Of a stretch of 32,000 nt of DNA, positions 4,738 to 23,485 are shown in pieces (the stretch's first letter is position 1; the number at the start of each line of letters is the position of its first letter). The position numbers were made by a program, and so were the translations under genes. The stretch lies in the NCBI RefSeq assembly GCF_000017845.1, contig NC_010546.1, positions 90,001 to 122,000 on the forward strand, given 5' to 3'. The notes under the pieces were generated by a model. That model had not been told where the DNA came from. It saw only the letters and a list, made by a program, of their open reading frames with translations, and did no database searches. This stretch comes from Crocosphaera subtropica ATCC 51142. Lineage in GTDB: Bacteria; Cyanobacteriota; Cyanobacteriia; Cyanobacteriales; Microcystaceae.

Positions 4738-6137
4738 TTAGGAAAAAGTTAATTGTTGACCCGAAGATAATCGTTGTACCATTAAGAGAATGTCATCCCG
4801 AAAAGGACAATGAGCAGCTAATTCTACTAGAGTTCTTCTCACAGAAACAGTAACTTTAGAGCTATTTTTATAATGGTTTCCCTCAAACGAGAAACTTGAG
4901 CCATCCCCAATCTCGTCCCTTCGGCAGAAGCCCGAAGTTCAAGCATTAAAATATAAGCTGCTTGGCATAAAAATAAGCGAAATTGATTAACAATAAATTT
5001 ATGGTAACTGAGACGATCTGCATTAATGCCTAGTTTCAATTCTTTAATTCGATGCTCAGAACTTGCCCCTCTTTGAACATAAAAATTATCGTAAAGTTCT
5101 TGCGGTTCTGTTTCCAAATTAGTCACCAAAAATCGAGGATTACTACCTTTTTTAAGCCATTCTGCTTTCATGACAATTCGACGAGGAGCTTTCCAAGTTT
5201 TGGCAGCATAATATACATCATCAAACAGCGGATGCGACCCCGCGCCGTCGCACGGCGCAAGGGAACGCGCACCAAGCAAACGAGCCTTATCTTGAGTCCG
5301 AAAATACTGTAATCTAGCTAGGTCAAGAAGATAATTAATTTTCCTTTTTAACACAGCATTTTTACTAAAGCCAAAAACATATTTTATATCTTTTTGTTCG
5401 CAAAGATTCATGATTTCAGGTAAAGAAAAACCTCCATCTCCTCGCAAAATTATTTTCACAGATGGCCAAGCTTTTCTTAAACGCCAAAACAGCCATCTTA
5501 GTAACCCTAAAACCCCTTTACCTGCGTGAGAATTTCCTGGTCTTAAGTGTAAAAGTAAAGGATAACCACTTTTGGCTTCATTAATTAAGACAGGAAAATA
5601 AATTTGATGTCCATAGTAACCATGAAATAAGCTCAATTGTTGGTGTCCATGAGTATAAGCATCAAATCCATCTATATCTAATACTATTTGTTCTGGATCT
5701 GAGGAATAATTTTGAAGAAATTTATCGACAAAAAACCGACGTATCCTTTTAATTTCTTGTTTAGTTATTCTATTTTCTAGGCGACTAATCGTCGGCTGAC
5801 TTGCTAATAATTCTGCTTCCATTTTGGGAATTTTATCACAAATAATTTTAAAAATTGGGTCATGACGTAAGTAATTACTATCATTCGTATCTTCATATCC
5901 TGCTGCTATTTGATAGATTCTTTGACTTATTAACTGAAATAGTGGATGTTTAACTTTATGTTGTTCTCTTTCATCTTCTAAGCAATCGGCGATTCCTTGA
6001 CACACTTTCCAATTTTCTTCTCCTTGCTTTAGCAATAATAATCCCGCATCTGTACTTAAATCTAGTCCAGAAAACTTGACCTCTAATGGTTTCTTCGTCT
6101 TAAAATTAAAGGGGAGTTTTTTGGAAAATGTTTTCAT
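4738..6137 (-). pseudogene. IS1380-family DDE transposase, frameshifted near the 3' end and carrying a GC-rich hairpin insertion
   Basis: Track ORF 4839..6137 (432 aa) ends ...ETIIKIALKLLFL*. The +1 frame continues KVTVSVRRTLVELAAHCPFRDDILLMVQRLSSGQQLTFS* to 4738, which looks like the normal C-terminus of this family. The N-terminus (LSTDAGLLLL, QRIYQIAAGYEDTNDSNYLRHDP) is typical of this group. Confidence 0.6.
5234..5268. repeat. 35-nt GC-rich hairpin module, copy A (inside the IS1380 transposase)
   Basis: The sequence is GCGACCCCGCGC-CGTCGCACG-GCGCAAGGGAACGC. Both arms are identical to copy B at 10126..10160. It encodes the in-frame segment APCDGAGS within an otherwise AT-rich gene. Confidence 0.6.
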
Positions 6138-6352
6138 GAATAATCAATGGATTTATCTAACTTTTATTCCTCCCTTTATTATAGTTTATTCTGAACTTTT
6201 TGAAAGCATTGTTTTAACTTATTCTTGATAATTCAAAAATAAATAATTAGTAAGAGATTAAAATTACAGACTGTTGTTCGGTTGAAATCTCTATATTCGT
6301 TATGGGATAAGGCTTTTAGGTTTTTTTTTCATGTTTTCATGAATAATACAGG

Positions 6353-6800
6353 CTAGTGTATTGGAGTACAAGAATGGGCAAAAATCCTGAGATGCCAAAG
6401 CGAACAGCATCACTGCTCAAAAAGCAAAAAGGGAAATGCGCCCACTGTGGACTGTTCTTTAAAGATGAAGACACTATAGAGTTAGACCATATCATTCCTA
6501 AGTCGAAAGGTGGAAAGAATGAATATAAAAATTGGCAACTACTCCATAGACACTGCCATGACGAAAAGACCAGAACAGATGGAAGTCTGGAAAGGTCTGG
6601 TAACAAAACTGGTTGTAACAGTACCATACCAAAACAACTATCAGATATCCCATCTAACTACAGATGGATAAACGATATGCTTGTGACGGCGTACTAATGA
6701 CAATAGCCGTTTTACTGAGGAGCCGTATGATGCGAAAGTATCAAGTACGGTTTTGGAGAGCAGTGGAGAAGGTGACTTCTTCACTGACTTTACTGTCCTC
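6353..6800 (+). mobile_element. Group II intron 3' fragment B (HNH domain of the intron-encoded protein plus canonical domain V and domain VI)
   Basis: The HNH ORF is cut at its 5' side by the IS end. Domain V is GAGCCGTATGATGCGAAAGTATCAAGTACGGTTT at 6720..6753, with a GAAA tetraloop. A GTGA-looped hairpin follows (CAGTGGAGAAG/CTTCTTCACTG). The 3' boundary is approximate. Confidence 0.7.
6356..6697 (+). pseudogene. C-terminal fragment of a group II intron reverse transcriptase/maturase (DNA-binding plus HNH endonuclease region only)
   Basis: The translation is VYWSTRMGKNPEMPKRTASLLKKQKGKCAHCGLFFKDEDTIELDHIIPKSKGGKNEYKNWQLLHRHCHDEKT, an HNH motif. No RT domain is present upstream. The frame opens only 9 nt before, at the IS boundary. 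Confidence 0.75.
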
Positions 6801-21816: not shown

Positions 21817-22026
21817 TTAACTCACGTCTACATATTCACACAGGGTTTTAGGATTAGGAAACTCATTGCCTTCTGCTTGTAAGCTGTTGAGATGAGCAGA
21901 AATAGAAGCATAAATCGATTTTTTTACCTCTTCTACGGTGTTCCCTACGGCAGAACATTCCGGTAAATCAGGAACATAAGCACCATAATGAAATCTTCCC
22001 TTTTCAATAATTACTGCGTAACGCAT
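21817..22026 (-). CDS. HicB-like (UPF0150) antitoxin-family protein with no obvious HicA partner
   Basis: MRYAVIIEKGRFHYGAYVPDLPECSAVGNTVEEVKKSI is the typical HicB N-terminal fold signature. Confidence 0.7.
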   Translation of the reverse strand: MRYAVIIEKGRFHYGAYVPDLPECSAVGNTVEEVKKSIYASISAHLNSLQAEGNEFPNPKTLCEYVDVS

Positions 22027-22217: not shown

Positions 22218-22670
22218 TTAGGCTTCTGCCATTATTTCAATGGGAATTAAAAGGGGTTTAGCATTGTTGGGTTCAATGGTAAATAATACCCGATTCATCC
22301 CAGAAGGACAACACAAGGGATCATCGTTATCATAGCGTTTATATTCTACAAATAAACTCGAAGGACTGGTTAAGAAAATCCTTGCCATATCGCCATCGGT
22401 TCGAGAGTTCATCGGTTGAGGGGATAGAGTTCCTGCAAATTGTTCTCCGACAAAGACAAATGCTTGGTAACCTAAAGGACGACACATTCCGTCTACTCCA
22501 CTCATAGCGGTTATAACAATGGTTTCATCATAGGTTTGTCTTGGACCAAAGAGTTCCCAACCTGCTCTAATAATAGCCCTTTCTTGGGGGGTTTTTGCTT
22601 CTCTTAATTGGTCTTTACATCTATCAACACTGGGAAGTTCAGCATCTATTTTTGGTGCATTAGGAATCAT
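22218..22670 (-). CDS. LppP/LprE-like domain ORF; probably the downstream part of a frameshift-split gene
   Basis: The motif DDPLCCPSG near the C-terminus is reminiscent of the LppP/LprE family. The reading frame stays open for a further 44+ codons upstream of the annotated Met, up to the A13 tract. Confidence 0.55.
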   Translation of the reverse strand: MIPNAPKIDAELPSVDRCKDQLREAKTPQERAIIRAGWELFGPRQTYDETIVITAMSGVDGMCRPLGYQAFVFVGEQFAGTLSPQPMNSRTDGDMARIFLTSPSSLFVEYKRYDNDDPLCCPSGMNRVLFTIEPNNAKPLLIPIEIMAEA

Positions 22671-22795
22671 CTGTCCTATATCATTCCAATTACTTAGTTG
22701 ATCATCTAACCATATTTTTGTTCTTTCCTTAACTGCTTTTTTACTAATAATTTCAATCAGTGACCATTGAAGACTACTACTATCAGCAGGAGGAT

Positions 22796-23485
22796 TTAAT
22801 TTTTTTTTTTTTGAGAAATTCTTAGCTCATAAAAATACCCTGGTTCGTAGTCAAACCCTTCAATTGAACTATAGAAAAATGTCCAGTTATCTTCTAAATT
22901 TTCTTTAATTTGCAAGCATTGTTGAGGTGCGACCCCAATACAATCTACGGTTTCAGGGCTAATATAAACTGTTTTTTCTACAGTTTTATTATTGTTATTA
23001 TTGATGTTCTTGAAGGTTAAAATACCAATTTCTTTTTGTTTGATGTAAGCGATTTGTAATTGTCCTTTTGCATTAATACTGTAAATTTTTGCTCCTTCTA
23101 ATGCTCCTAAAAATAGCATTTCTTGGTTCATGATTTCTTCAGTACAAGCTTTACGAGTTGCAGCAATTAAGCCTACTTTGATGGCATTGTCTTGAATAGC
23201 ATATCCTGCGGTATAACGGTTACAACTTCCACTTCCTGAAACGGTATCTTTCTCAAAAGCAATGGTAGAGTTTTCTTTACCTAAAGTTTGATTTTCAGTC
23301 CAATCAATTAATTGCCATTCTGTTCCTATTAAGGGATTTCTCTTTTGATTCTGTTCTTGATTTTCTGTTGGGTTGACTGGGTTTTCGTTGGCGATCGCAG
23401 CATTAAATTGATGCAAAGGAACTAGGGAAACTGAGAGAAGGATCATCCCTTGAATAATTTTTTTTAGCCCATACTTATTCATCAT
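22796..23485 (-). CDS. Secreted META-domain (HslJ-like) plus DUF4377-like protein, ending inside an A13 tract
   Basis: There is a signal peptide. META-like sequence reads GTEWQLIDW...SGSGSCNRYTAGY. DUF4377-like sequence reads CIGVAPQQCLQIKE...WTFFYSSIEGFDYEPGYFYELRI. The ORF ends QKKKN* in the homopolymer. Confidence 0.7.
   Translation of the reverse strand: MMNKYGLKKIIQGMILLSVSLVPLHQFNAAIANENPVNPTENQEQNQKRNPLIGTEWQLIDWTENQTLGKENSTIAFEKDTVSGSGSCNRYTAGYAIQDNAIKVGLIAATRKACTEEIMNQEMLFLGALEGAKIYSINAKGQLQIAYIKQKEIGILTFKNINNNNNKTVEKTVYISPETVDCIGVAPQQCLQIKENLEDNWTFFYSSIEGFDYEPGYFYELRISQKKKN
22800..22812. repeat. 13-nt homopolymer (T13 on plus, A13 on the coding strand) at the junction of two ORFs
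   Basis: Counted directly from the sequence. One extra A, or a -1 slip, would fuse ORF 22796..23485 to the frame containing 22218..22670. Confidence 0.9.

Follow-up and report, generated by a model that had tools for sequence, protein, structure and literature searches.

The cce_0121 and cce_0120 reading frames and the run between them

The window analyzed here is a stretch of 32,000 nucleotides from the genome of Crocosphaera subtropica ATCC 51142 (NC_010546.1, positions 90,001 to 122,000 of the forward strand; coordinates below are those of the window), on the minus strand of which lie two adjacent open reading frames (ORFs), cce_0121 (ACB49473.1; 22796..23485) and cce_0120 (ACB49472.1; 22218..22670), that GenBank and RefSeq annotate as two ordinary genes. 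Close to the 3′ end of the upstream ORF the coding strand carries a run of thirteen adenines (A13; T13 at 22800..22812 on the plus strand), which is present in the sequence just as an original prediction, made from the letters of this stretch, had described it. The downstream frame is probably expressed by non-standard decoding at this poly-A run, which would then constitute a selectively maintained −1 recoding site.

Read in the 0 frame, cce_0121 encodes a 229-aa product with the C-terminus ...GFDYEPGYFYELRISQKKKN* (QKKKN-TAA), the TAA stop lying at 22796..22798. It comprises a signal peptide (residues 1-33; 23387..23485), a META domain (PF03724; residues 51-146; 23048..23335; E = 9.5e-23), also matched in a fold search of the Protein Data Bank (PDB), and the N-terminal part of a DUF4377 domain (22805..22966). 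The −1 frame is closed on its upstream side by a TGA at 22827..22829 and is open from 22826 for 202 codons, down to the TAA at 22218..22220; it opens four full codons and one partial codon ahead of the tract, close to the five codons originally predicted. Both frames are open only in the interval 22799..22826, the shift window, which contains no ATG, GTG or TTG in the −1 frame. Past the tract the −1 frame reads KKKKLNPPADSSSLQWSLIEIISKKAVKERTKIWLDDQLSNWNDIGQ-M... (also given as (S)KKKKLNPPADSSSLQWSLIEIISKK...GQ) and continues without a stop through the ATG of cce_0120, confirming the predicted open passage into its annotated Met. The 43 codons ahead of this Met (22671..22799), referred to below as the bridge, have no start codon of their own and encode the end of DUF4377 and a linker. 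They are followed by the 150-aa cce_0120 product with its LppP/LprE domain (22269..22535), a Cys-rich domain of an exported-lipoprotein family; the downstream ORF nevertheless has no signal peptide. Addition of one A to the tract yields a conceptual fusion of 422 aa.

Within the window A13 is the sole A/T run of at least ten nucleotides. The only other run of at least nine is a T9 at 6321..6329, which is intergenic, between ORFs 4839..6137 (minus strand) and 6356..6697 (plus strand). Across 151 kb of DNA from the clade, all runs of at least ten, and all runs of at least nine inside long stop-free stretches, fall at this orthologous site, the expectation for a run of at least 13 under independent, identically distributed bases being 0.07. 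Logan assemblies of two independent read sets, SRR26036487 (locus L029) and SRR26036489 (locus L030), show the A13 tract and both ORFs without any difference, and A13 is thus found for ATCC 51142 in three data sets, that of GenBank and two later ones.

Comparison with Pfam profiles bears out the originally proposed boundary of DUF4377, according to which the homopolymer cuts the domain in two. The short ORF matches PF14302 (DUF4377) over profile positions 1-54 of 75 with 72.8 bits, compared with 1-75 of 75 and 97.8 bits for the fusion (+25 bits), positions 55-75 being matched in the fusion only. In the fusion DUF4377 is preceded by META (PF03724; 79.3 bits) and followed by Lipoprotein_21, i.e., LppP/LprE (PF14041; 64.8 bits, 2-86 of 87), and all three families exceed their gathering thresholds. 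An AlphaFold2 model of the fusion (mean predicted local distance difference test score, pLDDT, 83) places the first four DUF4377 strands (residues 169-181, 189-194, 202-204 and 217-227) in the 0 frame, with the tract lysines 226-229 at the end of strand 217-227, and the next and last long strand (SLQWSLIEIISKK; fused residues 239-251; 22734..22772) in the −1 frame. Residues 241-250 are modeled at a mean pLDDT of 95, as against 64 for residues 231-240. The 229-aa short form is therefore modeled as lacking the last DUF4377 β-strand and the whole LppP domain. Disruption of the last DUF4377 strand of CipA is predicted, likewise from an AlphaFold2 model, to destabilize the domain (PMC9361855). The PDB fold search with the fusion model returned META-domain nuclear magnetic resonance structures only (2kts and 2la7) and no functional lead for DUF4377 or LppP.

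Conservation of the split and selection on the downstream frame

Loci from relatives were assembled from tblastn-confirmed hits in Genome Taxonomy Database (GTDB) genomes, contigs encoding database proteins, and a metagenome pattern scan admitting tract lengths of 8-16. Seventeen distinct sequences of the Crocosphaera/Cyanothece clade (the window, L003-L009, L018, L021, L031-L034, L036, L038 and L039) are split at the same position on a run of A9-A13, none having a shorter run. Besides the A13 of the window, a run of A10, ending ...CAA AAA AAA AAT TAA, is found in CCY0110, SU3, BG0011, MO_202.B2, 06_in_wi, 03_out_wi, C. watsonii WH 8501, L034, L036 and L038, whereas the run reads A9C in Alani8, A9G in a watsonii-like metagenome contig, and A9 in UBA12306, UHCC 0190 and two Logan contigs. 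The shift needed to rejoin the frames is −1 (or one extra A) in all 17 and +1 in none. In UBA12306 (L021) and L033 the −1 frame opens within the run itself (TAG TAA AAA AAA ATT and GC TAA AAA AAA ATT, respectively), and a shift there is therefore possible only on the A's.

A few members of the clade carry the gene in frame, namely L001/L041 (A11), L028 (A9; coverage only 3x) and SU2, in which the run is interrupted (AAAACAAAAA); each of these genes equals its split sister plus exactly one nucleotide. The outgroups Microcystis and Pannus have an intact single ORF and no A run. The loci are syntenic throughout, with an OpuAC-permease fusion and thiL upstream. In a neighbor-joining tree every in-frame gene pairs with a split sister (bootstrap 100, 89 and 100), and parsimony accounts for the distribution by one gain of the split and three reversions (four events), as against at least six independent gains. 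Usable bootstrap values are those of the sister pairs (100, 89, 100 and 93-96), the values of 0-4 for deep rooted clades being an artefact of rooting. The pairing of in-frame with split genes makes the split state old and, under parsimony, most likely the ancestral one.

Two C. watsonii-type metagenome contigs, L039 (Ga0064014_10018; A9G) and L040 (Ga0064013_1015; A10), differ at the last base of the tract, indicating natural variation at the site by substitution and not by length; in L039 both frames are kept and the last lysine codon of the −1 frame becomes AAG. In the metagenome-assembled genome of Crocosphaera sp. MO_188.B44 (L027) the orthologue (5001..5513) breaks off at about residue 171, and the remainder of the gene, tract and LppP part included, is missing. 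With upstream synteny intact, this is a genuine loss and illustrates real decay at the locus. Immediately downstream of cce_0120 in the window lies a HicB-like antitoxin ORF (cce_0119; PF15919; 69 aa; 21817..22026, minus strand) with 84% proteome coverage, beside which no obvious HicA partner ORF was noticed; an ORF of this kind is found at the same place in CCY0110, SU3 and BG0011 only.

When the frame is restored, the proteins align over ~200 codons past the tract with zero indels and zero stops. The ratio of nonsynonymous to synonymous divergence (dN/dS), estimated by the Nei-Gojobori method from 36 pairs drawn from nine split genomes, is 0.19 upstream of the tract, 0.235 in the 43-codon bridge and 0.16 downstream, at dS of 0.4-1.4. 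The BG0011 gene was left out of this estimate on account of a second frame break. That break, in Cyanothece sp. BG0011 (L005; NZ_PRLH01000190.1), lies near codon 160 (about 5465..5480) beside an A7 run, and is likely a long-read homopolymer error, the record being a 'unitig' assembly.

Start codons for an independent downstream gene are poorly preserved. In the −1 frame the position of the first canonical start is not conserved, ranging from +13 to +98 codons past the tract, and six split genomes have Q, K, T or S in place of the annotated downstream Met; in five of these six the first start falls inside the LppP domain. Strains without this Met include CCY0110 and BG0011. A promoter scan, which is a weak test, gave no promoter-like match between the tract and the downstream ATG. 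Orthologues sharing the stop position, and having a downstream ORF with a start or signal peptide of its own, would have refuted the original prediction; the stop position is indeed shared, but neither a conserved start nor a signal peptide was found downstream, and the prediction is thus not refuted. Because the bridge is under purifying selection in the −1 frame, has no start of its own and completes DUF4377, it is most readily understood as being translated as an extension of the upstream protein.

Translation of the downstream frame and decoding at the run

Products of both ORFs have been detected in the proteome of ATCC 51142 described by Stöckel et al. 2011 (PMC3043056, Tables S1 and S2), for which the search database held annotated proteins only. 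The upstream protein, cce_0121, is represented by 16 peptides and 381 observations, all in residues 34-166 (PMC3043056). These include the semi-tryptic peptide A.NENPVNPTENQEQNQK.R (16 observations; PMC3043056, Table S1), which shows that the cce_0121 product is cleaved by signal peptidase after AIA (residue 33; 23387..23389), i.e., at AIA|N. For cce_0120 there are six peptides and 44 observations (58% coverage), extending from K.IDAELPSVDR to the C-terminal VLFTIEPNNAKPLLIPIEIMAEA (PMC3043056). The downstream frame is thus translated in vivo and the N-terminal part exported. Normalized per residue of the mature region, the ratio of downstream to upstream spectra is ~0.15, which would correspond, as a very crude estimate, to a long-form fraction of ~15%, provided that the downstream peptides come solely from the fusion; the data also suggest that the short form accumulates. 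We infer that the downstream peptides derive from the fusion protein, for which the predicted bridge-spanning peptides are LNPPADSSSLQWSLIEIISK and IWLDDQLSNWNDIGQMIPNAPK, the latter running across the annotated Met.

In the proposed mechanism cce_0121 and cce_0120 would be one gene for an exported META-DUF4377-LppP/LprE protein. Standard decoding would halt one codon past the run to give the 229-aa precursor, of roughly 196 aa after cleavage of the signal peptide, and a minority of products would pass to the −1 frame to give the 422-aa protein, either by the ribosome slipping one base back on A_AAA_AAA or by RNA polymerase inserting one extra A in the transcript. RNA-polymerase slippage was not named in the original prediction, though the 'one extra A' considered there covers it, and it is a live alternative to ribosomal slipping.

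Several properties of the site bear on the choice between these routes. An in-phase A_AAA_AAA, of the X_XXY_YYZ heptamer form, is present in the split genes without exception (17 of 17), the 0 frame reading CAA AAA AAA AAA AAT in the window, CAA AAA AAA AAT in the A10 genomes and AGT/GCT AAA AAA AAA TTx in L021/L033. A −1 overlap without an initiation codon, as seen here, is a geometry expected of programmed ribosomal frameshifting (PRF), and the constancy of site and direction (−1 in 17 of 17) corresponds to the criterion applied to PRF in GeneTack (PMC3711429). The criterion applied there to programmed transcriptional realignment (PTR), orthologues that shift in either direction, finds no counterpart, the direction being −1 only; run length, at A9-A13 in all 17 split genes, does reach the approximately nine A's associated with PTR. 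Slippage by RNA polymerase is also favored by the codon phase in which the run starts, which varies among these genes, and by the failure to find a conserved stimulatory structure, Shine-Dalgarno-like element or Rfam motif. Ribosomal slipping is given a slight edge over slippage by RNA polymerase.

Published measurements are consistent with efficient slippage at runs of this kind. In Escherichia coli reporters −1 shifting reached 63% at A11, 40% at A9 and 10% at A7 (PMC3711429), values that lead one to expect a substantial efficiency by either route. Transcriptional slippage on A9 was shown for dnaX of Thermus thermophilus and proposed for A10 dnaX genes, and runs of An with n > 7 are listed for PTR (PMC3711429). 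In favor of the ribosomal route, a 13-A chloroplast tract needing a −1 shift was the best-corrected configuration, at about 18% in planta, with no heterogeneity among complementary DNAs at 5% sensitivity (PMC8254509); in favor of slippage during transcription, poly(A) tracts in endosymbionts give rise to 12-50% corrected transcripts (PMC5009743).

The sequence around the run limits the outcome of other shifts. Of 14 genomes examined, 12 have the 0-frame stop no more than one codon past the run, and in every one the third frame comes to a stop after 1-7 codons. In the window the conserved codons GAT-AGT-AGT-AGT (D-S-S-S), shortly past the tract, give rise to four stop codons in a row, TGA-TAG-TAG-TAG, in the third (+1) frame (22774..22785, minus strand), so any product of a shift in the wrong direction would end five codons after the run. 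Selection has preserved this arrangement throughout the Crocosphaera/'Cyanothece' clade, and the run is accordingly best described as a programmed, or at least an obligatory and stably maintained, recoding site. More tentatively, the run may fix the ratio of two exported isoforms, an abundant META protein one DUF4377 strand short and a minor full-length protein, as an adaptive, clade-wide programmed signal. The −1 option of the original prediction, which foresaw a short protein of 229 aa and a long one of about 420 aa (422 aa as computed), is supported by the comparative, structural and proteomic evidence taken together.

Alternative explanations and relation to known systems

A number of observations weigh against a recoding site. 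Neither a trans-frame (junction or bridge) peptide nor heterogeneity in messenger RNA length is among the observations so far; recorded peptides come from the two annotated ORFs only, and a search against annotated proteins could not have revealed bridge or junction peptides. In ATCC 51142 the downstream ORF does have an ATG (22668..22670) with AGGA 3 nt upstream, and the cce_0120 peptides in this strain could come from independent initiation there. The three relatives with the gene in frame (L001/L041, L028 and SU2) indicate that the split is not indispensable, and the split lineages are phylogenetically related, such that 17 of 17 does not amount to 17 independent events. Lysine codons in these genes are AAA in 87% of cases, which makes the unbroken run weak evidence on its own. 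Nor were conserved stimulatory elements, which are common but not obligatory at frameshift sites, found: single-sequence folds taking in 60 nt before and 70 nt after the run were inconsistent among 15 genomes, the RNAalifold consensus for 12 genomes (−4.96 kcal/mol, one covarying pair) revealed no conserved structure, no conserved Shine-Dalgarno-like motif was found, and an Rfam scan at E <= 1 was empty.

The only folding features around the run are a 7-bp hairpin ~30 nt upstream, with one covarying pair, and a 6-bp hairpin ~27 nt downstream. The hairpin GGTTTGACTACGAACC, followed by a U-rich stretch (22842..22857, minus strand) ~30 nt before the A run, was flagged by a terminator scan, and among the 12 aligned genomes its helix alone has a compensatory change (A-U in six, G-C in five); it overlaps the most conserved protein motif, GFDYEPG, and may for this reason be incidental. 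Reading the T13 as part of an antisense terminator was rejected, there being no hairpin ahead of T13 on the plus strand.

The separate genes of the GenBank and RefSeq annotation would consist of a META protein with a degenerate DUF4377 remnant and an LppP gene translated from its own start, and in ATCC 51142 this is in keeping with the ATG at 22670, its nearby AGGA, and the separate detection of the two products in the proteome. Such an arrangement is nonetheless very improbable, given the loss of that Met to Q, K, T or S in six split genomes, the location of the first canonical start within the LppP domain in five, and a bridge ahead of the ATG that evolves under constraint in the −1 frame (dN/dS 0.235) and supplies what is missing from both the DUF4377 profile and fold. 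The downstream ORF would, moreover, be without a signal peptide despite encoding a Cys-rich domain of an exported-lipoprotein family, and the gene is an intact single ORF in, for example, Microcystis, Pannus and SU2. Sequencing or assembly error and recent pseudogene formation, two further options of the original prediction, are rejected. Homopolymers are error-prone on some platforms and the original genome dates from 2008, but A13 recurs in the two independent Logan assemblies, giving three independent data sets for the strain, and the same split is found in Sanger-era, Illumina and long-read assemblies and in metagenomes, i.e., in 17 lineages obtained with differing technologies. Relaxed selection of the kind expected of a pseudogene is not apparent, dN/dS being about 0.2 at dS of up to 1.4 with no stops or indels over ~200 downstream codons; the downstream protein is detected in vivo, and a truly decayed copy (L027) looks different, its 3′ part having been lost.

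Slipped-strand phase variation, in which replication alters tract length, a subpopulation is in frame (A14 or A11) and the consensus represents the OFF majority, draws on the mutability of A10-A13 homopolymers, on an exported product with a cleaved signal peptide seen by mass spectrometry (MS), as for many phase-variable genes, and on toggling of the frame over evolution, L001/L041 (A11, in frame) being sister to L007 (A10). This option, which had also been raised originally, is considered improbable here for several reasons. The A10 run is identical across 11 distinct lineages that are dS 0.4-1 apart; all 17 splits share one phase, and no allele of the +1 phase (A9/A12 + TTAAAT) was found in the scan admitting lengths 8-16; where the tract does vary, it does so by three nucleotides (A13 vs. 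A10) or by substitution (A9C, A9G), with phase kept. In ATCC 51142 itself A13 is found in the GenBank genome and two later read sets. The fused protein, in its A11, A14 and A17 states, has no exact match among ~15 billion public proteins, a result that counts against a fused allele and is uninformative about RNA, and the spectral ratio of about 0.1-0.15 would demand an implausibly large ON subpopulation. Known phase-variable loci, such as the poly-A of Mycoplasma p78 and the poly-G/C tracts of Neisseria and Haemophilus, likewise have a homopolymer in a gene for an exported protein and occasional in-frame relatives, but they exist as mixtures of ON, OFF(+1) and OFF(−1) states, whereas here both tract length and phase are fixed.

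A serious remaining rival is a frameshift that is tolerated and not adaptive. A tolerated site would go back to an ancestral one-base deletion in a lysine-rich linker that has remained unrepaired, with slippage leaking enough protein and the ratio of products being non-adaptive. We regard this as unlikely, though far from negligible. The sequence logic is that of the poly(A) rescue seen in Buchnera/Blochmannia (PMC5009743) and of a chloroplast atpB mutant (PMC8254509), the short form, one β-strand short, may be non-functional for DUF4377, and in-frame revertants are viable (L001, L028 and SU2). Large free-living populations, however, should quickly fix the frequent reversion from A10 to A11 if a higher yield of the full-length protein were advantageous, and yet 17 split lineages stand against three reversions; the nearness of the 0-frame stop to the run (one codon at most in 12 of 14 genomes) and the shutting of the third frame within 1-7 codons likewise argue against tolerance, as does the abundance of the short form (381 spectra), which is not simply degraded.

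Chloroplasts have translation and transcription machinery of cyanobacterial descent. The poly(A) rescue of Buchnera/Blochmannia genes (Tamas et al. 2008, cited from PMC5009743) and the I-iota mutant of chloroplast atpB (PMC8254509) resemble the present locus in that coding oligo-A offsets a one-base frame defect. They differ in involving recent or laboratory mutations and tiny, drift-dominated genomes, whereas the split described here is conserved at dS of about 1 in free-living organisms with large genomes and intact repair. The dnaX genes of T. thermophilus and of the Chlorobi type (Antonov et al. 2013, PMC3711429) share with it a non-mobile chromosomal setting and an A9-A10 run between two frames, and in two-ORF dnaX, as here, the longer product requires a shift and the run is conserved among orthologues. 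However, dnaX encodes a cytoplasmic replicase subunit with a known tau/gamma stoichiometry, in contrast to an exported protein of unknown function, and slippage in T. thermophilus dnaX is experimentally transcriptional, whereas for cce_0121 the mechanism is proposed from sequence.

Frameshifted (fs) genes for Mg-chelatase subunits (chlD/bchD-type; A7-A11; PMC3711429; PMC9227772) also have a −1 direction that is conserved across genera, annotation as two adjacent genes, and fused single-ORF homologues elsewhere, with an efficiency that follows the length of the A run (10%, 40% and 63%). They belong to another protein family and clade, no such fs-gene having been reported in cyanobacteria, and both of their products are functional subunits, whereas the short product here has an incomplete domain. 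In the type III secretion system (T3SS) genes of Shigella flexneri (mxiE, spa13, spa33 and mxiA), which are chromosomal or plasmid genes that, like the present one, are not part of an insertion sequence and belong to envelope/secretion biology, a run of nine A/T leads to a C-terminally extended product in 25-30% of cases; these differ in their T9/A9 runs, in slippage proven at the RNA level, and in not being deeply conserved over a broad range of species. CipA of Acinetobacter baumannii and HslJ (PMC9361855, PMC11724541) represent the META and META-DUF4377 families, are exported, and likewise point to the structural importance of the last DUF4377 strand, but they are encoded by ordinary single-ORF genes with neither an LppP/LprE domain nor recoding.

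Literature searches on the gene, its accessions, DUF4377, and Crocosphaera/Cyanothece together with frameshift or slippage returned no prior description, and the −1 recoding site is apparently undescribed. Among bacterial genes that are cellular and non-mobile, conserved recoding is rare. The cases usually named are prfB, dnaX, csoS2, copA, some chelatases and the T3SS genes of Shigella, and every one of them has been informative on how product ratios are set. The present locus has an unusually clear evolutionary record (17 split lineages, three reversions, and intact outgroups without the run) and lies in a well-studied model diazotroph for which about 1,400 MS runs are public under PXD001860/MSV000079053. 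In the databases each Crocosphaera genome is at present annotated with a pair of unrelated 'hypothetical' genes here, of which one is an LppP/LprE 'lipoprotein' without a signal peptide of its own. If the more tentative reading as an adaptive signal is correct, the locus would represent conserved −1 recoding in a non-mobile cyanobacterial gene, with a truncated isoform that would have a function of its own and an efficiency that might be tunable, whether through tract length (A10 vs. A13) or, the organism being a diel nitrogen-fixer, through growth state. It would also offer a natural substrate for asking if cyanobacterial ribosomes or RNA polymerase slip on oligo-A, a question left open by the work on chloroplast atpB (PMC8254509).

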